A stretch of 64,000 nt of DNA from Inquilinaceae bacterium (GTDB lineage Bacteria > Pseudomonadota > Alphaproteobacteria > DSM-16000 > Inquilinaceae): positions 52,341 through 116,340 of the forward strand of contig CBDEGD010000006.1 in the NCBI GenBank assembly GCA_965237625.1. The letters run 5' to 3'. The number at the start of each line of letters is the position of its first letter. Position 1 is the first letter of the stretch. This document shows positions 34,504 to 56,444 of this stretch, one piece after another. The position numbers were made by a program, and so were the translations under genes. The notes beneath the pieces are model-generated. The model made no database searches and was not told the DNA's origin. It saw only the letters and a program-made list of their open reading frames with translations.

Positions 34504-36168
34504 ATGGTCGACGGTCGGATTTCGGTCGGCGGTTTTACCGAAGGGCTGCGCACGCTGGCCTTCGGCAATCCCCTTTATTCTCTCACTCTGGGCCGGGGTG
34601 GTCCGACCCGTCTTGAGGCGGTGCCGCCGGATCCATGGCCGGGCGACGCCGATCGCGGCGCGGCGCTATGCGCCGGCGAGTACCGCTTCGCCGGACGCAC
34701 CTTGGTTTCCGAGATACCCCTATGGCAGCCGGTCGGCGTCGGTGACGCCTTTTTGGCGGAGTTGCACCGCTTCGACTGGCTGCGCGATCTGCGCGCGGTG
34801 GGTGGCGACTCGGCCAGGCGGCAGGCCCGGAACCTGGTCGGGTCGTGGATCGACCGCCATGATTCCTGGCATCCGCTGACCTGGCGTCCGGATGTGCTCG
34901 GGCTCCGCATCGCGAACTGGCTCGGCACCCATGATTTCTACTGCGCCAGTGCCGATGACCGGTTTCGGGCGCGGATTTTCGCCAGCCTGTTCCGCCAAAC
35001 CCGACATCTGGCGCGGGCCCTGCCGGGCGGGCTGAAGGCCGTGCCGCTGTTGGTCGCCCTGAAAGGCTTGTTCTACGGCATGTTGTGTCTGCCCGGCGCG
35101 GAATCGCGGCTGGAGCCGGCGCTGAAATTGCTGGCCCAGGCGCTGAAGGACCAGATCTTGCCGGATGGCGGACATGTCCAGCGCAGCCCGGCGATCCATC
35201 TCGACCTGCTGCGCCATCTGATCGACCTGCGCGCCGTCATGCGGGCGGCCAAGGCCGAGGTTCCCGAAGCGCTGCAGCATGCCATCGACCGCATGGCGCC
35301 GGCCGTCCGGTTCTTCCTGCATGGGGATGGCGGGCTCGCTCTGTTCAACGGCACCCGCGAGGGCGAGGCGGTGCTGGTCGACGCGGCTTTGGCCCAGGCC
35401 GATGCGCCGGGACGGCCGTTGAAGAGTGCGCGGCATTGCGGTTTCGAGCGCATTCAGGCCGGTCGAACCCTGATGCTCATGGATGTCGGGCAGCCCCCCC
35501 TGGCCGGCCTCGATGCCGGAACCCATGCCGGGACACTGTGCTTCGAGCTGTCGGTGGGCCGCGAGCGCATGATCGTGAATTGCGGCTCCATGGCCGGCCT
35601 CGACCCGGCGCCCAATGGCGCCCAGGCGGCGGCTTGGGCATTGGCGCTGCGCGGTACGGCGGCCCATTCGACACTGACCGTCGATGACACGAACTCCAGC
35701 GAGGCGGTCGCCGATGGCGGCTTGGCGCGGCGGCCGTCCAAAGTCACCGTGGAGCGCCAGGAGGAAGACGGTGCGGTGCTGATCGAGGCCAGCCATGACG
35801 GCTATCGCCGGCCCTTCGGCATGACCCATCACCGGCGGGTCTTCGTCAATGCCACCGGCGACGACATTCGCGGCGAGGATCGTTTGGAGGGCGGCCGCAC
35901 CCGGCCCTTTGCCCTGCGGTTCCATTTGCACCCTTCGGTCCAGGTTTCCGCCGTGCAGGGCGGCACGGCCGCGCTGATCAGGCTCGGTGGCGGGGCCGGC
36001 TGGCGCCTGCGTGCCGATGGCGGCGATCTCTCCATCGAGGAGAGCATCTATTGCGGCGTGGAGTCCGACATTCGCCGAACCAGCCAGATCGTCATCTCCG
36101 GCCACACCGAGGCCGGCAAGACGCCCACCCTCGTCAAGTGGGGCCTGCGCCGCGAGCGCAAGGACTGA
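34504..36168 (+). CDS. Heparinase II/III-family protein
   Basis: 554 aa. The N-terminus (PDPWPGDADRGAALCAGEYRFAGRT...LHRFDWLRDLRA) and C-terminal half (AGTLCFELSVGRERMIVNCG...AHSTLTV) match the conserved alphaproteobacterial heparinase II/III-like family. That family is often found between rpe and purH. Confidence 0.7.
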   Translation: MVDGRISVGGFTEGLRTLAFGNPLYSLTLGRGGPTRLEAVPPDPWPGDADRGAALCAGEYRFAGRTLVSEIPLWQPVGVGDAFLAELHRFDWLRDLRAVGGDSARRQARNLVGSWIDRHDSWHPLTWRPDVLGLRIANWLGTHDFYCASADDRFRARIFASLFRQTRHLARALPGGLKAVPLLVALKGLFYGMLCLPGAESRLEPALKLLAQALKDQILPDGGHVQRSPAIHLDLLRHLIDLRAVMRAAKAEVPEALQHAIDRMAPAVRFFLHGDGGLALFNGTREGEAVLVDAALAQADAPGRPLKSARHCGFERIQAGRTLMLMDVGQPPLAGLDAGTHAGTLCFELSVGRERMIVNCGSMAGLDPAPNGAQAAAWALALRGTAAHSTLTVDDTNSSEAVADGGLARRPSKVTVERQEEDGAVLIEASHDGYRRPFGMTHHRRVFVNATGDDIRGEDRLEGGRTRPFALRFHLHPSVQVSAVQGGTAALIRLGGGAGWRLRADGGDLSIEESIYCGVESDIRRTSQIVISGHTEAGKTPTLVKWGLRRERKD

Positions 36169-48297: not shown

Positions 48298-48495
48298 ATG
48301 GCAGGCGGGGGCGGCTGCCAGGACCAGAATGCGGGCGGCGAGATTGTGCCGGTCGAACTGGATGCCGGTGTGCTCGAGATTATTGATGCGTATTGCCGAC
48401 GGTTCGGTATGGCCGACCGCAGCGAGGCGATCAACGAGTTGCTGATGATCGGATTGAGTTGGTCGATGACCGATTCGGAGCGATCGGATCGCTGA
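48298..48495 (+). CDS. Possible ribbon-helix-helix (CopG/Arc-like) small protein
   Basis: ORF 48271..48495; the ATG at 48298 has a gagga RBS 8 nt upstream. IVPVELDAGVLEIIDAYCRRFGMADRSEAINELLMIGL fits a beta-strand/helix/helix pattern. Confidence 0.35.
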   Translation: MAGGGGCQDQNAGGEIVPVELDAGVLEIIDAYCRRFGMADRSEAINELLMIGLSWSMTDSERSDR

Positions 48496-48692
48496 CGCGC
48501 GTCGGATGCGCTTCCTTTACAGCTTATTCATGCAGCACGGCCCACAAATCGGCACATATGGTCGTTAGTGATGCATGCGCGCGCTGGCCAGCAGGGCCGG
48601 CACTGTGCGCATGATCACATCGGCGCCCGGTGCGCCATGTCACAGTGACTCCGGCGACGGCTTGGCCGTCGCGCAACAGCTTGGCTGGAGTA

Positions 48693-49178
48693 ATGGCGAT
48701 GAGAATGGCGCTGGCAGCGTTCTCGGCCGCAGTCCTGACGGCAACGGTGGTTTCTGCGGCCGAAGTATCCGATGCCGACTACCTCGCTGACGTCATGAAC
48801 CAACGGCTGGAGTTCCAGAGGACAGGTGGGGAGGTGCAATGGCTAAACCCATCAACAGGCAATGGCGGTATTGTCATCCTACTCAGCACGGATGAGAGTG
48901 ATCCTGAACGACCCTGCCGCTCATATCGCTACACGATTGAACAACCGGGCGAGGCGACGATTGTCGTAGAGGGCGATGCATGCCGAATTGCTGCGTCCCT
49001 CTGGCAACGATCCGAGACTCCGGTTTCCTTGACACTTGGCACTGACCCGATGCCCATCACACCACCGGTCGCGCGCGCCGATCCGGAGCCAGCCGAACCG
49101 CCGCCGCATCTGCCGCCCGCGCATAAGCCGGATCCGGATGTTTTCTACGCCAGCATGCCGACGCCGTCGGTCTATTGA
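48693..49178 (+). CDS. Secreted surface-antigen-like protein (COG4520-like core) with a Pro-rich tail
   Basis: ORF 48630..49178, trimmed to MAMRMALAAFSAAVLTATVVSA (signal peptide). The core motif VQWLNPSTGNGGIV....PCRSYRY resembles 17-kDa surface antigen-type domains. The gene ends 24 nt before the kinase gene. Confidence 0.45.
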   Translation: MAMRMALAAFSAAVLTATVVSAAEVSDADYLADVMNQRLEFQRTGGEVQWLNPSTGNGGIVILLSTDESDPERPCRSYRYTIEQPGEATIVVEGDACRIAASLWQRSETPVSLTLGTDPMPITPPVARADPEPAEPPPHLPPAHKPDPDVFYASMPTPSVY

Positions 49179-49202
49179 TCTCCTGATGGTTGGACACGCC
49201 GC

Positions 49203-51482
49203 ATGAACCAGATTCAAGCGCCCCGGCCTGGCGGTGGAGGCGGGCGGCCGAAACGCACCGTCTTTCCGCGAGGGTACCAGCTGGGCGCCTTCACCATTGA
49301 CGGCGTGTTCGGGCGCGGCGCCTTTGGGGTCACCTATCTGGCCCATGATGCGGAGGGCGTCGCCGTCGCGCTCAAATCTCTCGATGCCGGGATTTCGGCC
49401 GAGATTGCGACGGCATTCCGGCGCGAGGCGGAAATCCTCGGCGTGCTGCGCCATCCGAACATCGTCGGATTGATCCATGCCGCGCCCGACGGCGATTCGC
49501 CTTATTTCGTCCTGGAACAGCTCGGCGGGCGGTCGCTTGCCGATGTGCTCGCCGCCGGGAATGGCGTTCCGGATCTCAAGCCGCTGCTATTCGGCCTGCT
49601 TGACGCCCTCGATCACGTTCACGGCGCCGGCTTCCTGCATCGCGACATCAAGCCCGACAATATCGTTCTGACCCAGGCCGGCAAGGCAGTCCTTGTCGAT
49701 TTCGGCGCCGCCGGGACGATCGATACTCCGGCGCGAACAGGCAAGACCCAGGCGACGCCGGGTTTCGGGGCGCTGGAGCAATTCATCGAAGACGGAACCG
49801 AAGGGCCCTGGACCGATCTCTACGGGCTGGCGGCCACCGCCTACCGGATGGTGACCGGTACGGCGCCCCCACCGGCGTTGGAGCGGGCAGAGGGTGCCGA
49901 GGTGAGCCCGGCGGCGGCGACGGGGAGCGCCCATCCAAAGGCGGTTCTCGAGGCCATAGACTGGGCGCTCGAACTGCCGGTCCATCGCCGCCCGCAATCG
50001 GTCGTTGAGTGGCGCTCGGCTCTCAACGATGCCTGGTCATCGGCCGGGGCGAAGACTTCCAGGTCGAAATCTTCCGGGTCGAAATCCGCCGAAACACCGT
50101 CACCTGCGACCGCATCTGCCGCGCCGCCCGACGACTACCCGCCGACTGAGGAGATCACCCGGGTCACCCCGCCGGCGCGGCGGGCGAAGCGACGCGTCCC
50201 CATGGATATCCCGGTGGCGCCGGGACCGTCCGCGTACCAGACCGCCGCATCGGAGCGCAGCGGCGGCTCCCGCTGGATCTGGGCGGCGGTCGGCGTGGCG
50301 CTCTTGGTCGCTCTTGGTGCCGGCGGGTACTTCGTCGGATGGCCCTACTATTTGCGGAACATCAAATCCGAGTGGCTGGTCGATCTGGCCGGCGGGGGCG
50401 ATGTGCGCACCATCTCCGAGGCGTTGGAGACCGCCAAGGAGGGAGCGCTGATCGAAGTGCGCCCGGGCACTTATGCGGAATCTCTGACGATTGTTCGGCC
50501 GGTGACCTTGACCGGGATGGACGTCGGGCCCGATGGCCCGACAGTGATCGTCGCGTCCGAGACTGGCGCCTGCCTGACCGCCGGCGGCACATCGGTCGCT
50601 GTCAGCGGTCTATTCTTCCAAGGTGCGGCGCTGTCGGAGGGCGCCAAGACGGCTTGTGTCGATCTGCAGGGTGCCGTGGCATTCCAGGGCAATCAGGTCG
50701 AAGCCGCCGGTCGCCCGGCGATGCATGTCGGCGGCGGCGCCGACCCGGTCGTGACCGGAAACCGATTGTCGGCGACCGCAGCGGCCGGATTGCTGATCGA
50801 TACCGGCGGCAGAGGCACGTTTCGGGACAATGCGGTCGGCAGCGCCGATGGGCCGGGCATCGTCATCGCCGGCGCCTCGCCGTCGATCGAGGCCAATTCG
50901 GTCGAAGGCGCCGGGCTTGCCGGTATTGTCTATGACGGCGCTGCGGCGGGCCGGCTGGCCGACAATGTCATCCGGCAATCCGGCGCGTCGGGCATTGAAA
51001 TTCGCGGCCAATCGAACCCGGAAATCACCGGCAACATCATAGAGGCGTCAGGTCAGGCGGGTATCTTCGTGTTTGAAGACGGCCGTGGCCGGATCGAGGG
51101 CAACACGATCACCGGCAGCGCCTTCTCAGGTGTCGTGATCGGTACCGGCGGCAAGCCAACCCTGACCACCAACACCATCACCGAGAATGCCGAGCATGGC
51201 GTACTTGTGCTGTCCGGCGCCGGTGGCGTGCTTCGGGCAAACACCATCGAACGTAATGGCAGCTTCGGCATCGCCATGGAGAAGGATGTCTCGGTGTCGA
51301 TGGATGAAAATATACTCTCCGGCAACCTCGATCCGCAGATCAGGGTTGACGGCATTGCCCGGCCATTTCCGCCGGATCCGGATGAAGAGGCCGGGGCCGA
51401 AATGGAGGCCGCGTCTGAAGCGGATGCAAGGACCGAAATGGAGACCGGGGCCGGTGCGGCCGCGGGTGGCGTATCCGAATGA
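49203..51482 (+). CDS. Hanks-type Ser/Thr protein kinase, one TM, extracytoplasmic right-handed parallel beta-helix (PbH1/NosD-like) repeats
   Basis: Kinase motifs are GRGAFGVTY, VALK, HRDIKPDNIVL, DFGAA and PGFGALEQ. The TM is WIWAAVGVALLVALGAGGYFVGW. At least 10 repeats of about 23 aa follow, of the form GNxIxxxxxxGIxI (for example ITGNIIEASGQAGIFV, IEGNTITGSAFSGVVI). Confidence 0.85.
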   Translation: MNQIQAPRPGGGGGRPKRTVFPRGYQLGAFTIDGVFGRGAFGVTYLAHDAEGVAVALKSLDAGISAEIATAFRREAEILGVLRHPNIVGLIHAAPDGDSPYFVLEQLGGRSLADVLAAGNGVPDLKPLLFGLLDALDHVHGAGFLHRDIKPDNIVLTQAGKAVLVDFGAAGTIDTPARTGKTQATPGFGALEQFIEDGTEGPWTDLYGLAATAYRMVTGTAPPPALERAEGAEVSPAAATGSAHPKAVLEAIDWALELPVHRRPQSVVEWRSALNDAWSSAGAKTSRSKSSGSKSAETPSPATASAAPPDDYPPTEEITRVTPPARRAKRRVPMDIPVAPGPSAYQTAASERSGGSRWIWAAVGVALLVALGAGGYFVGWPYYLRNIKSEWLVDLAGGGDVRTISEALETAKEGALIEVRPGTYAESLTIVRPVTLTGMDVGPDGPTVIVASETGACLTAGGTSVAVSGLFFQGAALSEGAKTACVDLQGAVAFQGNQVEAAGRPAMHVGGGADPVVTGNRLSATAAAGLLIDTGGRGTFRDNAVGSADGPGIVIAGASPSIEANSVEGAGLAGIVYDGAAAGRLADNVIRQSGASGIEIRGQSNPEITGNIIEASGQAGIFVFEDGRGRIEGNTITGSAFSGVVIGTGGKPTLTTNTITENAEHGVLVLSGAGGVLRANTIERNGSFGIAMEKDVSVSMDENILSGNLDPQIRVDGIARPFPPDPDEEAGAEMEAASEADARTEMETGAGAAAGGVSE

Positions 51483-51513
51483 CTGGGTTAGCAACTTATC
51501 GATTGGCCGCGAG

Positions 51514-51915
51514 ATGATGCGCAGGAGCTTTGTGATCGGCCGGAGCCCTTATGCGGATGTGGTCCTGGCGGATACCAGCGTGGCGCGCCGCCATGCCGAA
51601 GTGGTGACGACCGGCGACGGCCGGTTTCATCTGACCGATTGCGCCGCCCCGACCGGCACTTGGCGTCGCGCGAATGGTGGCGAGGACGGCAAGTGGGAGC
51701 AGATCCGACAGGCCTTCGTTGCGGTCGACGAGCCGCTTCGGCTCGGCGACCATGCCTGCACCATACAATCGCTACTCGGCGACCGGCTCGATACCGAAGA
51801 GGGCGCCGGCAAGGGTCGCTGGCGTCATGAAGGCATGCCGGAGGCGGCCGACCCGCCGCGCGGCCGGGTCGAGCGTGATCCGGAGACCGGTGAGATCGTG
51901 TCGAAGAGGCTCTAG
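51514..51915 (+). CDS. FHA-domain protein, divergent pThr pocket
   Basis: This is the 3' part of ORF 51187..51915, with the start at MMRRSFVIGRSP (ATG at 51514). GR and SxxH are present (VARRHAEV). The usual S-x-N-G-T is replaced by A-P-T-G-T (DCAAPTGTW). Confidence 0.7.
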   Translation: MMRRSFVIGRSPYADVVLADTSVARRHAEVVTTGDGRFHLTDCAAPTGTWRRANGGEDGKWEQIRQAFVAVDEPLRLGDHACTIQSLLGDRLDTEEGAGKGRWRHEGMPEAADPPRGRVERDPETGEIVSKRL

Positions 51916-51921
51916 ACGGAC

Positions 51922-52737
51922 ATGGCCGATACAACAGCGAAGCCGGGCATTCTCGGCGCGGACGAAAAGCCCGCCCGGCGGCGCCTGATTTCCCACCCGG
52001 TGGTGATCCTGGTCAGCCTGGTGCTGTCGGTGGTGACCATCGTGGTGCTGCACTTCGCGCTGCCTCATGACGTGGCGGTGATCCTGCTGGACAGCGAGCG
52101 GGAGACCTATCCGCTGACCGTGCAGAATGTCATGTGGATCGTCTTCGGGGTCGGTCTGGGCGAGCTGTATGTCCGGGGCCGGGCGGCGCGGGCGGAACAG
52201 GCGCAGCTGCGCCAGGGCTATCTGCCGGTGGACGAGACGACGATCCTGCAGGCGCCGGAGCTGCGCGGAATCTATGCCCAGGCGCGCGCCAGCTTCGAGG
52301 CTGGCGGCCGGGAAGGCGGCTTCCTGCCGCGGCTGATCCAGCGGGTGATCCTGCAATTCCGCACCAGCCGCTCGATCGAGCAGGCCAACGCCCTGCTGAA
52401 CTCCAGCCTGGAGCTCTATCTGCACGAGATCGACCTGCGCTACAGCATGGTGCGCTATGTGGTCTGGGCGATCCCGACCCTTGGCTTCATCGGCACGGTG
52501 ATCGGCATCTCCCTGGCGCTGGCCTTCGCCGGACAGGTCGATGTGCAGGACCCGACCTTGCTGGCGGAGCTGACCAAGCGGCTCGCGGTTGCCTTCAATA
52601 CCACCCTGCTGGCCCTGGTGATGGCGGCGATCCTGGTGCTGATCCAGCACATCGTCCAGGCCAAGGAGGAAGGCGCGCTGAACGAGGTCGGCCAATACTG
52701 CCTCGATAACCTGATCAACCGGCTCTACGAGGAATAG
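51922..52737 (+). CDS. MotA/TolQ/ExbB-family proton-channel-like protein (3 TM)
   Basis: 271 aa. TM1 is HPVVILVSLVLSVVTIVVLHFAL. The family signature in TM2/TM3 is WAIPTLGFIGTVIGISLALAF ... LAVAFNTTLLALVMAAILVLI (compare PxLGLLGTVxGM ... AxxTTxxGLxxAIP). It starts 6 nt after the FHA gene. Confidence 0.7.
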   Translation: MADTTAKPGILGADEKPARRRLISHPVVILVSLVLSVVTIVVLHFALPHDVAVILLDSERETYPLTVQNVMWIVFGVGLGELYVRGRAARAEQAQLRQGYLPVDETTILQAPELRGIYAQARASFEAGGREGGFLPRLIQRVILQFRTSRSIEQANALLNSSLELYLHEIDLRYSMVRYVVWAIPTLGFIGTVIGISLALAFAGQVDVQDPTLLAELTKRLAVAFNTTLLALVMAAILVLIQHIVQAKEEGALNEVGQYCLDNLINRLYEE

Positions 52738-52750
52738 GGGGCGCTCCTAG

Positions 52751-53731
52751 ATGCTCGTCCGGCGCAGCCGCACCCTGGATCTGCTCAGCATCTCGGCGCT
52801 CGACCTGTTCGCCTCGGCGCTCGGCGTGTTCGTGCTGATGGCGGTGTTGCTGTTCCCGTTCTACCTGAAACAGCCCTCGATCGAGGCCGAGTTGCAGGGC
52901 GCGGAGGCGCAGATGGCCGCCGCCGGCATGGCCCTGACCGAGGCGCGTCGGGTCGCCAGCGAGGAGGCCGAGGCGCTCGGGGCGACCGACTCCTTGCACG
53001 CGCGTGCCATCGACGAGGTGCAGCAGGCCGAGGCCTCCAAGGCGGAGGCCGAACAGGCGCTGGCCGAGGCGGCGGCGCGATCCCAGGAAGTCGGTGATCT
53101 GACCGCCTCGCTCAACGAGGAGCTGGCCAACATCGCGATCGCCGATCTGGATCTGGTCTTCGTCATGGACACCACCGGCAGCATGCGCCAGGAGATCGCC
53201 GACGTGCAGGCCAACCTGATGGGCATCGTGCGCGTCCTTCATCGGCTGGCCCCGTCGCTGAATGTCGGATTTGTCGCCTTCCGGGATCGCGGCGAGGAAT
53301 ATGTGACGCGGGCCTTTCCGCTGAGCCCGATGGCCGGCAACAATCTCGCGCGGATTCAGGAATTTGTCCGCAGCCTCAATGCAAAGGGCGGCGACGACTA
53401 TCCTGAATCCGTCGGTGTCGCGTTGGACGAGGCGATGGCGATGGCATGGCGGGCCGATGCGCAGGGACGCATCATCGTCATCGGCGACGCGCCCGACCGG
53501 GCGGGCGAGGTCCCGCGCATATTTTCAATGGCCCAGCAGTTCCAGGCGAGCGCCACGTCCGAGGGCCTGCCGCGCGCGGTCTCGACAATTTTCACTCAGA
53601 GCCGGTACCCGGCGGGGCGCCTGTTCTATGAGGATTTGGCCGAGGCCGGCGGCGGCGATTTTGTCGACCATCAGGGCCGGATGATGGAAAGCGTGCTGCT
53701 GTCCGTGCTGGACCCGGCAGCGTCCCGTTAG
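52751..53731 (+). CDS. ExbD/TolR-like N-terminal TM anchor + coiled coil + vWA domain protein (paralog 1)
   Basis: The N-terminus RRSRTLDLLSISALDLFASALGVFVLMAVLLF has an Asp at the cytoplasmic end of the TM, as in ExbD/TolR. An Ala/Glu-rich coiled coil of about 90 aa follows. The vWA domain has the MIDAS-type VFVMDTTGSM, GGDDYPES and VIGDAPD. Confidence 0.75.
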   Translation: MLVRRSRTLDLLSISALDLFASALGVFVLMAVLLFPFYLKQPSIEAELQGAEAQMAAAGMALTEARRVASEEAEALGATDSLHARAIDEVQQAEASKAEAEQALAEAAARSQEVGDLTASLNEELANIAIADLDLVFVMDTTGSMRQEIADVQANLMGIVRVLHRLAPSLNVGFVAFRDRGEEYVTRAFPLSPMAGNNLARIQEFVRSLNAKGGDDYPESVGVALDEAMAMAWRADAQGRIIVIGDAPDRAGEVPRIFSMAQQFQASATSEGLPRAVSTIFTQSRYPAGRLFYEDLAEAGGGDFVDHQGRMMESVLLSVLDPAASR

Positions 53732-53749
53732 GCCGGGCAAGGGAGAGGA

Positions 53750-54118
53750 ATGATGGGTTCGGATCAGGATTTGGAGGGCGGCTGGCGCCTGGAAGGCGCC
53801 GATGGGGCCGGGCGTCCGGTGCGGCTGCTGATCGGCCGGACGCAGCTCGCCATGGTCTATCTTGGCGTGACCATCGGCCGGCATCCGGCGCTGTGCGACC
53901 TGGCGGTGGACGATCCTTCCATATCCCGGCGCCATGTCCGGATCGGGCGCGGCGCCGGCGGATTGTTCGTCGAGGATGTGCATTCCCTGAACGGCACCTT
54001 CGTCGAGGACCGGCTTTTGGAGCCGTTCGAGCCATGCCCGCTTCAGGAAGGCGACACGCTGACCCTCGGCCGGGTCACGCTGACCGTCTCGCGGCTCGGC
54101 GACGAGTTGCCGATCTGA
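53750..54118 (+). CDS. FHA-domain protein, canonical
   Basis: 122 aa. TIGRHP...DDPSISRRHVRI...VEDVHSLNGTFVEDR...GDTLTLG carries all five conserved FHA positions (G-R, S-xx-H, S, N). Confidence 0.8.
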   Translation: MMGSDQDLEGGWRLEGADGAGRPVRLLIGRTQLAMVYLGVTIGRHPALCDLAVDDPSISRRHVRIGRGAGGLFVEDVHSLNGTFVEDRLLEPFEPCPLQEGDTLTLGRVTLTVSRLGDELPI

Positions 54119-54190
54119 CGGGTTTGGGGGCAGGCGGCAAATGAATTCATGTTCGGCATCGAAGAGGAGATCAGCGGTCCCATTCCAATC

Positions 54191-54259
54191 GTCATTCCCG
54201 CGATGGCGGGAATCCAGCATGCGGGGAGTCCGACTGGAATCCCGCCTTCGCGGGAATGA
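54191..54259. repeat. REP pair of the 'cattcccgcgaaggcgggaatc' family in inverted orientation
   Basis: The units are gtcattcccgcgatggcgggaatcc (54191-54215) and ggaatcccgccttcgcgggaatgac (54235-54259). Each is a hairpin, and together they form a larger inverted repeat. Confidence 0.8.
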
Positions 54260-54340
54260 CGACAGGAGATTAGAAAAACCCCATAATTTATTGATTTTAG
54301 GTGATTTTCATAAGGCCGACGCCAATGATCGGCCACCAGC

Positions 54341-55315
54341 ATGAAACGCCGCAGCCGCGAGGTCTCGATCTTCAGCATGTCGGCGCTCGATGTGCTGGCC
54401 ATGGCGACCGGCACCTTCGTGCTGCTGATGGTGATCCTGATGCCGTATTACCGGATGACCGTGGACGCCAACGCGGCAATGAACGACATGCTGGCCTCGA
54501 CCGAGGCCCAGACGGCGGAAGCCGAGGCGCTGGCGGCCGCGGCGGCGGCGGCCCGGGCGGCCAGGGAAGAAAAGATCGCCGAGGCCGAGGAGATCCTGCG
54601 CGCGGCGGCGGAGCTGCGCGCCGCGGCGGTCAGCCTGCGCCAGGAAGCCGACGCCGCCGATGGGCGTTCCGGCAGCGACGAGCGGCGCATCGCGGAGCTG
54701 CGCGCCCGGATCGAACAGCGGATCATCAACGAGCTCGATCTGGTTTTCGTGATCGATACCACCGCCAGTATGAACGAAGTGCTGCGCGAACTGGCCGGAT
54801 CGATGGCCGGCATCGTGCGTATTCTGGAACGGCTGGTGCCGTCGCTCCGGGTCGGCGTGGTGACCTATCGGGACCGCGAATTACCGGGCCGGGTCGTGCA
54901 ATCGTTTCCGCTGACCCCGACCGACACGTCACTGGACCAGATCCAGCGTTTCGTCGGTGGGCTGCGTGTTTCAAGGGTCGGTGGCAGCACGGTGCATGAG
55001 GATCTGGACCAGGGACTGGCTGAGGCGCTCGACATGCGTTTCCGGCCGGACGCCAAGCAGACCATCATCGTGATCGGCGACGCCGCGGCGCACCGGCCCG
55101 AGCAAGGATATACCCTGCGGATCGCCAACCGCTTCACCGATAGTGGCGTCAGGCGTTCAATCTCGACCCTGTTCGTGCCGACCCGGTCCTACAGGCTGGG
55201 CGGGCGGGGCGACCGGGAATTCTTTCAGGATCTGGCTCGGGCCGGCGGCGGCACCTTCAACGAACACAGCGGCCAGCTCATCGAAGGCGTGCTGCTGTCG
55301 GTACTGGAAGACTGA
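54341..55315 (+). CDS. ExbD/TolR-like N-terminal TM anchor + coiled coil + vWA domain protein (paralog 2)
   Basis: The N-terminus is RRSREVSIFSMSALDVLAMATGTFVLLMVILM. A coiled coil follows. The vWA domain has VFVIDTTASM, VGGSTVHED and VIGDAAAH. The C-terminal ...GGGTFNEHSGQLIEGVLLSVLED parallels paralog 1 (...GGGDFVDHQGRMMESVLLSVLD). Confidence 0.75.
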   Translation: MKRRSREVSIFSMSALDVLAMATGTFVLLMVILMPYYRMTVDANAAMNDMLASTEAQTAEAEALAAAAAAARAAREEKIAEAEEILRAAAELRAAAVSLRQEADAADGRSGSDERRIAELRARIEQRIINELDLVFVIDTTASMNEVLRELAGSMAGIVRILERLVPSLRVGVVTYRDRELPGRVVQSFPLTPTDTSLDQIQRFVGGLRVSRVGGSTVHEDLDQGLAEALDMRFRPDAKQTIIVIGDAAAHRPEQGYTLRIANRFTDSGVRRSISTLFVPTRSYRLGGRGDREFFQDLARAGGGTFNEHSGQLIEGVLLSVLED

Positions 55316-55366: not shown

Positions 55367-56206
55367 CTACGACGCGGCCATCAAGGCGCGATAGAGCGCA
55401 GCCGCCTCGGCGGTTGGCAGTTCCATGATCGCCAGATGCAGGTACAGCGCCGTCCAGCAGACCCGCAGCTTCGCGTCCTCGTCCCGGACTGCCGCAAGAT
55501 CGGCATAGGCATCGAAGTCGAGCTGACGATCCCCGGCCAGGGCAAATGCCCGATTGACGACCTGGTCCAGCAAAGTCGACGTCGTGATGTCGTCGAGGGA
55601 GCGCTTGGGCTTCCCGATGACGCCCTCGGTCAGGATTCGCAAGACGACGTCGTTGGCGGTCTGCTGGGCTTCGGCTGAGAAAATCGGAGCCTGCGACCCG
55701 TCGGTGTTGCCCATCATGTAGGACAGGCAGGTCGACCCGCCCTGATCGGACGCCGTCTGCATATTGGCCGCGAAGACATTGACAAATGCGACCACCGCGT
55801 CGTCCGAGGCGGTGCCGATCAGGCGCGGCAGCAGGGTGGTGCCGATATCGAACCCGATCGAGCGGACTTCCCGTTGGACGGCCCCATTGCCCCGGTTGGC
55901 GGCGTGTTCAAGCCGATTGCGGATCGCCGGCTCCTGCTCCGGAAAGGCCTCCAGAATGGTTGGCAGCAACGGATCCCCGGCGATGATGTCGTCGACGTCG
56001 GGCGCGGTCAGGCGCATCACCCCGATCTGCAGGCCGACGCCAACGCCGATGGCGACCACCACCATCGCCGCCACGATCGGCCATTTCCGTTTCAGCCCCT
56101 CCATCGGGTTTTCACGTCCGATCACCCGGATCACGATGAACACCGTGACCACCACGATGATGGGCAGGATGAAATCCAGCATGTATGGCTTGATGGCGTC
56201 CAGCAT
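55367..56206 (-). CDS. Hypothetical membrane protein (2 N-terminal TM plus a soluble domain)
   Basis: ORF 55367..56275, trimmed to MLDAIKPYMLDFILPIIVVVTVFIVI. No family is recognised. Confidence 0.45.
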   Translation of the reverse strand: MLDAIKPYMLDFILPIIVVVTVFIVIRVIGRENPMEGLKRKWPIVAAMVVVAIGVGVGLQIGVMRLTAPDVDDIIAGDPLLPTILEAFPEQEPAIRNRLEHAANRGNGAVQREVRSIGFDIGTTLLPRLIGTASDDAVVAFVNVFAANMQTASDQGGSTCLSYMMGNTDGSQAPIFSAEAQQTANDVVLRILTEGVIGKPKRSLDDITTSTLLDQVVNRAFALAGDRQLDFDAYADLAAVRDEDAKLRVCWTALYLHLAIMELPTAEAAALYRALMAAS

Positions 56207-56444
56207 GATCGCAACGTCCCGTAAGCGGCGAGTGGTCGAAGATGCGCACACCGTATGGGCGCGACTCCTTCGCAATCATTAAGCGCCGTCGTCGTGGGGC
56301 GGTCGTTCGCCGAACGGGCATGGCGCCGAAAAATTAGCGCTGGACGCCGTTCCCCTCCGCCTGAAATGATGGATACAAGGCCGACCCTGTCCGGCTGCCC
56401 GGCTCTGATGGTCGGCGGAGTGCAGGCTAAAGGCCAGCATCGAC

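Follow-up and report, generated by a model that had tools for sequence, protein, structure and literature searches.

Seven genes, all on the + strand, lie at positions 48693-55315 of a 64,000-nt stretch of DNA from an Inquilinaceae bacterium (assembly GCA_965237625.1, contig CBDEGD010000006.1), the whole of which is referred to here as the window. In order they encode a secreted 17-kDa-surface-antigen-like protein (Ag17), a receptor Ser/Thr kinase with a beta-helix ectodomain, a first FHA protein (FHA1), a MotA-like A subunit, a first vWA protein (vWA1), a second FHA protein (FHA2) and a second vWA protein (vWA2) (Table 1). The six-frame open reading frame (ORF) list gives the same-strand run and the spacers of 24, 31, 6, 13, 18 and 222 nt just as a first-pass annotation of this DNA had them, and Pfam searches confirm the domain calls made there for all seven genes. 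Together, the genes suggest a motor-type membrane complex coupled to phospho-threonine (pThr) signalling.

Motor-type subunits and their companion genes

The MotA-like protein matches MotA_ExbB (PF01618) at 46.7 bits over residues 146-251, the gathering cutoff being 22.9. In Foldseek the top 49 PDB matches of its model are all motor A subunits, ExbB and TolQ first and then ZorA, MotA and PomA (best E 1.4e-3; TM-scores roughly 0.3-0.6, mostly 0.4-0.6), and the assignment of this gene to the MotA/ExbB family is borne out by both profile and fold. The three-helix topology originally given to it is not. Hydropathy indicates three strong transmembrane (TM) segments and a weaker, highly conserved one at residues 65-84, with a basic N-terminus before it, and the AlphaFold model (pLDDT 74, pTM 0.67) has helices at 20-46, 67-97, 175-205 and 211-270; the protein is probably an N-in subunit with four TM helices and MotA-type topology. 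Homologues are abundant: a word-indexed search returned 2,410, the best 120 of which all carry PF01618, measure about 270 aa and are 66-92% identical, and when 1.84 billion cluster representatives were searched exhaustively, 141 clusters (at 50% identity) came up at E<=1e-30 and 985 at E<=1e-10. Within the family P185-LGF-G191-T192-V-G195 and F225-x-T227-T228 are invariant, T227 nearly so. The segment 'PTLGFIGTVIG' aligns with TolQ 'PYIGLFGTVWG' and 'AFNTTLLAL' with TolQ 'ALIATAIGL', placing T192 and T228, which are invariant across phyla, on the GTV and A-T(-A) pore threonine motifs of TolQ.

In both vWA proteins a basic N-terminus precedes a single TM helix, in which an Asp is invariant; a helical stalk of about 85 residues and a vWA head with a metal-ion-dependent adhesion site (MIDAS) follow. 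VWA, VWA_2 and VWA_4 are matched in both paralogues, with VWA_4 at 7.9e-12 and VWA_2 at 6.8e-8 in vWA1, and VWA at 5.1e-8 and VWA_2 at 2e-7 in vWA2. The two are 39% identical and fall into separate orthologous groups across all loci of the alpha type described below. In the AlphaFold2 (AF2) model of vWA1 (pLDDT 77.8) an uninterrupted helix, 13-125, is followed by the vWA domain, 133-325; beyond the membrane this helix would extend some 85 residues, or about 13 nm if straight, and the stalk is probably a two-stranded coiled coil. Foldseek places the vWA1 head with ANTXR2/CMG2, integrin beta-I and the Rpn10 vWA domain (E about 2e-8), and the MIDAS residues D140-x-T142-x-S144 and D246 are invariant, vWA2 included. 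Across 90 partner N-termini from 62 loci the consensus is R-R-x-R...(I/V)F-x-x-S-A-(L/I)-D-(L/V)-F-A-x-A-x-G-x-F...P-Y-Y, in which the TM Asp, near the cytoplasmic end of the helix, is invariant (90/90) and the helix is without His. Asp18 of vWA1 and Asp17 of vWA2 stand at the start of the TM helix; the counterparts in known motors are ExbD D25, TolR D23 and MotB D32.

These partners had been described as ExbD-like, and of that description the single N-in TM helix with its Asp stands. ExbD (PF02472) has no match at E<=0.1 in either vWA protein, and homology of the Asp helix to ExbD, TolR or MotB was dropped for want of any Pfam or PDB signal; the term is architectural only. The proposal that proteins with a TM Asp, a coiled coil and a vWA head replace the B-type partner is supported, with no exbD, tolR or motB among the cluster proteins or the flanking genes scanned with Pfam. 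A C-terminal peptidoglycan-binding domain of OmpA type is likewise absent from the vWA proteins, in which only vWA families and the vWA fold were matched. Ser and Thr are frequent in the cytoplasmic N-tails of the partners, at positions that are not conserved, and conserved phospho-sites there were dropped as a candidate. The heads are predicted to be periplasmic because the basic N-terminus indicates an N-in orientation under the positive-inside rule. This placement is supported by a vWA1-like domain fused behind a signal peptide to an Ag17 domain (see below) and by a vWA-Ig-TM-FHA protein in Verrucomicrobia.

The kinase (Pkinase 1.8e-30, Beta_helix 3.1e-30, NosD 2e-20 in Pfam) carries the motifs VALK, HRDIKPDN and DFG. 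It is built of a cytoplasmic Hanks kinase domain, an S/T/P-rich juxtamembrane linker, one TM segment (361-379) and a periplasmic right-handed beta-helix of NosD/CASH-like kind. The ectodomain varies by lineage, being a beta-helix here, an FGE-sulfatase domain in the gamma type and PDZ in Rhizobium. Of the two FHA proteins, FHA1 matches the FHA profile at 1.7e-8 over its N-terminal half only, and FHA2 matches at 1.6e-19 with the canonical pThr-binding residues GR, SRRH and SLNGT.

Ag17 matches 17kDa_Anti_2 at 29.2 bits (cutoff 26.6) and has a signal peptide (hydrophobic segment 2-23), no lipobox Cys and two Cys in the domain. Its gene is upstream of the kinase gene in all 16 alpha-type loci with enough flank. 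In a Kiloniellales locus (L014:2079-3359) a third vWA paralogue, without the Asp-TM helix, lies just upstream of the cluster; it begins with a signal peptide and continues through a 17-kDa-antigen-like domain and an acidic linker to a vWA1-like domain. Such a Rosetta-stone fusion hints that Ag17 and the vWA domains act together in the periplasm, and Ag17 is the best candidate for a periplasmic ligand or co-factor of the vWA heads in this lineage.

Table 1. Coordinates of the cluster genes, of motifs within them and of adjoining features in the window
Feature	Position	Strand	Basis
Small ORF, possible ribbon-helix-helix	48298-48495	+	weak NikR N-terminal match
Ag17, secreted 17-kDa-surface-antigen-like protein	48693-49178	+	PF16998
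Receptor Ser/Thr kinase with beta-helix ectodomain	49203-51482	+	Pkinase, Beta_helix, NosD
FHA1	51514-51915	+	FHA (PF00498)
FHA1 tail motif R-D-P-E-T-G-E-I, residues 121-128, Thr125	51874-51897	+	conservation in 58 orthologues
MotA-like A subunit, 271 aa	51922-52737	+	PF01618, Foldseek
Motor loop motif Y-L-P-V-D-E-T-T-I-L, residues 100-109, Thr107	52219-52248	+	conservation
vWA1, TPH-vWA (trans-pore helix-vWA) paralogue 1, candidate B-type subunit	52751-53731	+	VWA_4, VWA_2, AF2, Foldseek
vWA1 Asp18	52802-52804	+	
vWA1 MIDAS D140-x-T142-x-S144	53168-53182	+	
FHA2	53750-54118	+	FHA
REP-like inverted hairpin pair	54184-54267	.	FHA2-vWA2 spacer
vWA2, TPH-vWA paralogue 2, candidate second B-type subunit	54341-55315	+	VWA, VWA_2; Asp17 at 54389-54391

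Co-conservation, subtypes and genomic setting

A genome-collection scan with the MotA-like protein yielded 62 loci, to which one plasmid locus was added, making 63 from five phyla; the six-frame ORFs of these loci were searched with the window proteins and with representatives of variants. The alphaproteobacterial loci come from Inquilinaceae, Rhodospirillales, Kiloniellales, Caulobacterales and Hansschlegelia, the gammaproteobacterial ones from Lysobacterales, Chromatiales, Oceanospirillum, Thiomargarita and Parabeggiatoa, and the others from Verrucomicrobia, Acidobacteria and Gemmatimonadetes. Cultured hosts are R. leguminosarum BT01 (plasmid pRlBT01d) and H. beijingensis DSM 25481. Among the 34 loci that have 5 kb or more on each side (the full-flank set), an FHA gene is directly upstream of the motor gene in 29, at least two FHA genes are present in 31, a kinase gene in 29, at least one Asp-TM partner gene in 31 (29 by regular expression, L054 and L058 by inspection) and at least two partner genes in 26. 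The gene set recurs far beyond chance, and the expectation that it would be found again in other genomes, with the Hanks kinase and two FHA proteins co-conserved with the motor, is borne out by these relatives. No B-type gene (exbD, tolR or motB) stands beside this MotA-like family in any locus examined.

Three architectures can be told apart. The alpha type, comprising 25 loci and the window, displays the identical order Ag17 - kinase(beta-helix) - FHA1 - MotA-like - vWA1 - FHA2 - vWA2. The gamma type, displaying a divergent secreted TPR-CHAT gene, two Asp-TM-vWA genes, FHA1, the MotA-like gene and then a bitopic protein (periplasmic domain - TM - FHA), ends with a kinase that bears an FGE-sulfatase ectodomain and with a conserved secreted 297-aa protein of unknown family. 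The PP2C type, displaying FHA1, the MotA-like gene, a second FHA gene, PP2C, an Asp-TM partner, a trypsin-TM-FHA protein and one or two kinases, is found in Verrucomicrobia, Acidobacteria, Parabeggiatoa and some Rhodospirillaceae. The phospho-wiring is thus kept across Alpha- and Gammaproteobacteria, Verrucomicrobia and Acidobacteria, with PP2C present only in some.

Several individual loci show further features. The TPR-CHAT (caspase-like) protein of the gamma type, about 1,040 aa and secreted, is always encoded divergently from the cluster (L036:2117-5239, - strand, and 16 other loci). Inside the cluster of R. leguminosarum BT01 pRlBT01d lies a gene for a secreted protein of 1,610 aa in which Gly, Ala, Ser and Asp abound and which has no Pfam match (L063:11051-15883); it comes after a secreted 180-aa protein, and the Asp-TM partner there has a beta-rich, non-vWA head. 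In one alpha-type metagenome-assembled genome (MAG) the kinase, MotA-like, vWA1, FHA2 and vWA2 genes are broken into several frames (L049:5498-11038), so that this copy is either decaying or poorly assembled. An Acidobacterial locus has a group II intron reverse transcriptase/maturase next to it (L057:5101-6492).

In the window, about 15 kb on either side of the cluster is occupied by genes of metabolism and transport, namely rpe, purH, an MFS transporter, Usp, an alanine symporter, NAD-glutamate dehydrogenase (GDH), an ABC peptide transporter and MsrA. Only housekeeping families were matched by Pfam in these flanks, with no Ton, Tol, Pal, flagellar or type VI secretion system (T6SS) gene within about 15 kb, and phmmer against all ORFs of the window found no PP2C. 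Consistent with this and with PADLOC, the claim made from the letters of the sequence, that TonB, Pal, flagellar, T6SS, ZorC/D and PP2C genes are missing nearby, is borne out. The flanks (GDH upstream, the ABC transporter downstream) are common to the window and its closest relatives and the GC content of the locus shows no anomaly; the cluster therefore looks like a stable chromosomal locus. Housekeeping flanks, synteny with relatives and motor proteins that remain 66-73% identical across alphaproteobacterial orders together suggest a cellular function that is vertically kept. A heparinase II/III-like protein (2.8e-66) is encoded at 34504-36168, among rpe and purH and about 13 kb upstream of the cluster. 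Right after vWA2, in convergent orientation (55367-56275, - strand), lies a gene for a 302-aa protein with two to three N-terminal TM segments; it has no family match and is kept, among the loci examined, only in an Inquilinus MAG (L006).

Two features, one beside the run and one within it, appear to be no part of the system. The small ORF upstream of Ag17 had been put forward as a possible ribbon-helix-helix regulator, a role that did not hold up: its NikR N-terminal match scores 20.2 bits with a cutoff of 175, it has no Pfam match, and cross-locus ORF comparison finds it only in the three closest relatives (L001-L003). It probably just adjoins the conserved system. A terminator-like hairpin (48497-48511) directly follows its stop, such matches being at chance level; the promoter/terminator scan as a whole gave counts at chance level and says nothing on co-transcription. 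The REP pair reported in the 222-nt spacer is real, with 34-nt arms (54184-54217 and 54234-54267) that are 88% complementary. Its core hairpin, CATTCCCGCG-N3-GCGGGAATC, has 3 matches where 0.24 are expected by chance, and the pair is found once in the window. The FHA2-vWA2 spacer is 11-30 nt in most alpha-type relatives, as against 222 nt here, the exception being L015 with a gap of about 1.3 kb; the pair is an insertion that widens this spacer and lies outside the system. A weak sigma-70-like match (9/12) is present just past it, at 54259-54287.

Proposed phospho-threonine wiring and its competing explanations

The FHA1 family is orthologous across all layouts; its FHA domain is joined by a variable linker to the C-terminal motif R-x-P-x-T-G-x-I. 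The R, T, G and I of this tail are each at least 90% conserved in 58 orthologues drawn from all subtypes, and in R. leguminosarum it reads 'ERDPETGLI'. Many FHA domains prefer Ile or Leu at pT+3, a preference that T-x-x-I fits, and Thr125 of the window protein is proposed as a putative phospho-acceptor whose phosphorylated form would be an FHA ligand. Gamma-type FHA1 proteins are canonical at the pThr-binding residues. The counterparts of FHA2 in the other subtypes are C-terminal FHA domains of bitopic proteins with periplasmic trypsin-like domains.

Features of the MotA-like protein point the same way. Residues 102-115, in the cytoplasmic loop after TM2, are the sole low-confidence stretch inside the model (pLDDT <50), and the loop has the consensus Y-L-P-E-D-E-x-T-(I/V/L)-L, with L101 and D104 invariant and P102 nearly so across phyla. 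Thr107 is kept in at least 80% of 63 aligned sequences, L025/26, L048 and L052-L055 being among the exceptions. The loop sits where MotA has its FliG-contacting loop. The C-terminal helix, 'EE-x-ALN-x-x-GQYCLDNLINRLY', is nearly invariant across phyla. Together with the FHA1 tail, loop and helix point to a conserved cytoplasmic partner interface. FHA1 is the obvious candidate partner, since its gene immediately precedes that of the motor in 51 of the 61 loci where 500 nt or more of upstream sequence is available; in the window it ends 6 nt before the motor gene. The loop motif itself is proposed as a putative docking or phospho-site.

With moderate confidence, the cluster is read here as an ion-driven 5:2 motor with vWA arms under kinase/FHA control. 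Domains, folds, invariant residues, linkage of the genes and conservation of the motifs are established by the analysis; the 5:2 assembly, the heterodimer, the periplasmic placement of the heads, the phospho-sites, the direction of signalling, the ligand and the physiological role in the following outline are what we infer. Five copies of the MotA-like protein would surround a dimer of single-pass proteins, most likely a vWA1/vWA2 heterodimer, whose trans-pore helices carry the ion-binding Asp, the driving ion probably being the proton. Each partner would extend as a helix of about 85 residues ending in a periplasmic MIDAS vWA head. Ion flow would turn the dimer relative to the pentamer, and the stalk would pull or rotate whatever the heads hold, in this lineage possibly Ag17 as ligand or co-factor. 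The receptor kinase would sense the periplasm through its beta-helix ectodomain, which is of a glycan-binding type, and phosphorylate the conserved tail Thr of FHA1, the likely phospho-acceptor on what may be a motor-associated adaptor. FHA2 as canonical pThr reader, or FHA1 itself in the manner of GarA/OdhI, would then bind the phosphorylated tail; binding would shift FHA1 on the motor loop and C-terminal helix, and the motor would thereby be either licensed or blocked. Outside this lineage the pThr code may likewise bring bitopic FHA proteins with periplasmic protease-like or adhesive domains to the motor. The physiological role could be force transduction to the outer envelope or its surveillance.

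A number of observations weigh against this reading. In the PDB the MotA-like protein finds sequence matches no better than marginal (TolQ, E about 0.1) and a profile built from eleven partner N-termini finds no ExbD, TolR or MotB chain, and the 5:2 assembly and heterodimer would follow by analogy and from published AlphaFold3 (AF3) models of a relative. Some relatives have a single partner gene or a partner with a non-vWA head. On the signalling side, alpha-type FHA1 retains GR and S..H, whereas the Asn of its S-x-N-G-T loop, a canonical peptide-binding residue, is lost; the Verrucomicrobial FHA1 tail is without the Thr, and Thr107 of the motor loop is missing in several distant members. All this makes the assignment of the phospho-sites tentative. 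Gemmatimonadetes loci have no FHA or kinase genes within 7 kb of the motor gene. Signal reversal is unexplained in the window, where no PP2C is found in or near the cluster.

The locus could instead be a Zorya-like conflict or anti-phage system, in which the motor would sense envelope integrity and the kinase/FHA module, together with CHAT or trypsin-like proteases in other subtypes, would be the output that sets off defence or cell suicide. Conflict systems reportedly often feature FGE-sulfatase and TPR sensor domains, the 17 gamma-type loci always carry the divergent secreted TPR-CHAT protease, trypsin-FHA fusions occur in PP2C-type loci, the spread over phyla is patchy, and the group II intron reverse transcriptase lies beside an Acidobacterial locus. 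PADLOC does report weak ZorA2 matches over the TM region (1.7e-6, 25 bits); beyond these and generic kinase matches, however, no PADLOC family is found, ZorB, ZorC, ZorD and ZorE have no match in the cluster, and known defence systems were set aside on this result. The alpha type is moreover without nuclease, protease or other effector, the 271-aa MotA-like protein is without ZorA's long tail, the conservation of the motor sequence is high for a defence gene, and the locus, flanked by housekeeping genes in an arrangement that relatives share, is not anomalous in GC content. We regard a defence function as unlikely. A slighter chance still is given to the idea that the TM-vWA proteins are not motor subunits and form a TerY-P- or ArnA-ArnB-like module beside, or regulated by, a TolQ-like channel that acts alone or with distant partners. 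Such vWA-FHA-kinase(-PP2C) modules exist without a motor, examples being Sulfolobus ArnA/ArnB (PMC6509490) and the Deinococcus DRA0331-0334 vWA-STPK-FHA-PP2C operon (bioRxiv 10.64898/2026.01.23.701218), and no sequence homology links the partner helix to ExbD, TolR or MotB. A simple anchor, nevertheless, would hardly account for the invariance of the TM Asp or for a TM helix so extremely conserved across phyla. Rhizobium and Hansschlegelia partners keep the helix though the head domain has been swapped. In none of the loci examined does a B-type gene accompany the MotA-like family, and the vWA heads, being predicted periplasmic, would be out of reach of the cytoplasmic FHA and kinase domains.

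Least probable, and indeed very improbable, is a T6SS accessory, a variant of the PpkA/Fha1-like pathway with the motor-vWA unit in place of TagQRST as envelope sensor. The PpkA pathway is known to combine kinase, FHA and vWA, weak TagH matches are obtained with FHA2, and in Hansschlegelia beijingensis VgrG and TagH genes (L053:11336-15219) follow about 2.6 kb downstream of the FHA-MotA-partner genes. Against this, TagH model scores are 19-40 bits (FHA2 39.9) with a cutoff of 120, and no T6SS gene occurs in the window flanks, in the R. leguminosarum locus or in the Pfam-scanned gamma, Verrucomicrobial, Acidobacterial and Caulobacterales loci. The T6SS link raised by the Hansschlegelia adjacency was dropped, VgrG and TagH not being seen in the other loci examined.

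The reading as a kinase/FHA-controlled motor invites a wider and more tentative generalisation, to which we attach distinctly less confidence. The loci might represent a widespread, unrecognised class of pThr-gated 5:2 motors, a bacterial counterpart of integrin-style two-way signalling. In such a class the kinase would read the periplasm, an FHA adaptor with a T-x-x-I switch would license the proton-driven motor, B subunits would pull ligands via their MIDAS heads, and the pThr code would elsewhere recruit bitopic FHA proteins with periplasmic proteases.

Relation to described systems

The system had been offered as undescribed, which it is not in its core: the motor and vWA pair were predicted computationally in 2025 (PMC12204202; Mol Biol Evol, June 2025, 42:msaf138; section 8, Fig. 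4c-d). That study describes TM-tethered vWA proteins with a TolR/ExbD-like trans-pore helix and conserved Asp (TPH-vWA), mostly as heterologous pairs tightly linked to tolQ-like genes and without tolR/exbD. It was seeded on Idiomarina loihiensis, notes no SHLS/His motif, covers Proteobacteria and Verrucomicrobia and reports no phenotype; its AF3 models put the TPH-vWA dimer in the pentamer with the two Asp inside the Thr ring. Every feature stated for this TolQ-like plus TPH-vWA class is found in the window locus. No Idiomarina entry appears among the best 120 homologues, whether the query was an alpha-type or a gamma-type partner, and the seed accession is absent from the text and supplements of PMC12204202. 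Kinase, FHA and PP2C genes, an Ag17-like gene and the motifs of the present analysis are not mentioned there: 'kinase', 'phospho' and 'forkhead' occur 0 times in the main text, where the sole word beginning with 'FHA' is FhaC, and two mentions of 'kinase' in the supplements are both unrelated. The TPH-vWA class is not mentioned in a phylogenetic survey of MotAB homologues (PMC12505986) or in a 2026 review of Ton/Tol motors (PMC12905483), the latter being also without the words 'kinase', 'FHA' and 'vWA'. Literature searches found no paper joining kinase/FHA to a TolQ-like plus vWA unit.

Compared with ExbB-ExbD-TonB and TolQ-TolR-TolA, the locus has the closest A-subunit fold, the pore Thr motifs and an N-in TM-Asp partner, and would share the presumed delivery of force across the periplasm from the proton-motive force. 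It differs in that the A subunit has an extra N-terminal TM helix, there is no ExbD-type periplasmic domain, and no separate TonB/TolA transducer is present, the B subunit itself carrying stalk and head. We know of no report of Ser/Thr-kinase/FHA control of Ton or Tol. GldL-GldM is a 5:2 motor in which the inner dimer, GldM, is itself a long periplasmic shaft reaching outer-membrane components, and this would be the nearest functional analogy; the families are unrelated in sequence, GldM has Ig-like domains where the partners here have a coiled coil and vWA, and GldLM is without a kinase/FHA module. MotA-MotB and PomA-PomB share the probable four-TM topology of the A subunit, and their TM2-TM3 cytoplasmic loop is a partner-contact surface (MotA R90 and E98 contact FliG), the candidate counterpart here being the conserved Y-L-P-E-D-E-x-T loop; the locus has neither an OmpA-like domain nor flagellar genes nearby, and the stator fold matches rank below ExbB and TolQ. 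ZorA-ZorB resembles the locus as a non-flagellar 5:2 motor tied to signalling, with weak profile and fold matches; here, however, there is no long cytoplasmic ZorA tail and no ZorC/D effector, and the long extension is predicted to be periplasmic, on the B subunit.

The phospho-signalling half has its own relatives. PpkA-Fha1-PppA, TerY-P and ArnA-ArnB likewise combine Hanks kinase, FHA and vWA in a logic of pThr-dependent assembly, but lack a MotA-like motor, and their vWA is cytoplasmic (TerY, ArnB) or the kinase's ectodomain (PpkA). The locus belongs neither to the TerY-P triad nor to the T6SS threonine pathway, having no PP2C in the window, vWA predicted periplasmic and no T6SS genes in its flanks. 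GarA/OdhI is a small FHA protein with a terminal Thr motif, to which FHA1 and FHA2 give weak NCBIfam OdhI matches, and may serve as model for the proposed self- or trans-binding switch. In GarA, however, the phospho-motif is N-terminal and the targets are metabolic enzymes; there is no homology past the FHA domain, and scores are far below cutoff.

The structural inference of the first-pass annotation was essentially right. The MotA/ExbB assignment is supported, the genes are co-conserved in other genomes and no homologue with a characterised function was found. Its claim of novelty stands for the phospho-threonine wiring, which is absent from the main text and supplements of PMC12204202. No paper was found for the kinase/FHA(/PP2C) wiring, the R-x-P-x-T-G-x-I tail, the Y-L-P-E-D-E-x-T loop or the vWA-Ag17 fusion, and the Ag17 link, the three subtype architectures and the identified cultured hosts also remain new.

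Even if the locus should prove ordinary, it would add a clean and well-conserved member to a newly predicted motor class, one still without a phenotype. Characterised 5:2 motors (MotAB, ExbBD, TolQR, GldLM, ZorAB, AglRQS) are, to our knowledge, switched on by plug release or partner engagement, none of them being under Ser/Thr phosphorylation, and the literature searches brought up no such case. If the kinase/FHA(/PP2C) wiring does gate the motor, this would be a new regulatory principle for the 5:2 motor family. It would also offer a direct handle on an orphan machine present in hundreds of protein clusters and at least five phyla, and would place the TPH-vWA motors of the 2025 prediction in a functional context for the first time, with an Ag17-like protein as candidate ligand, a glycan-type ectodomain as input and tractable hosts.

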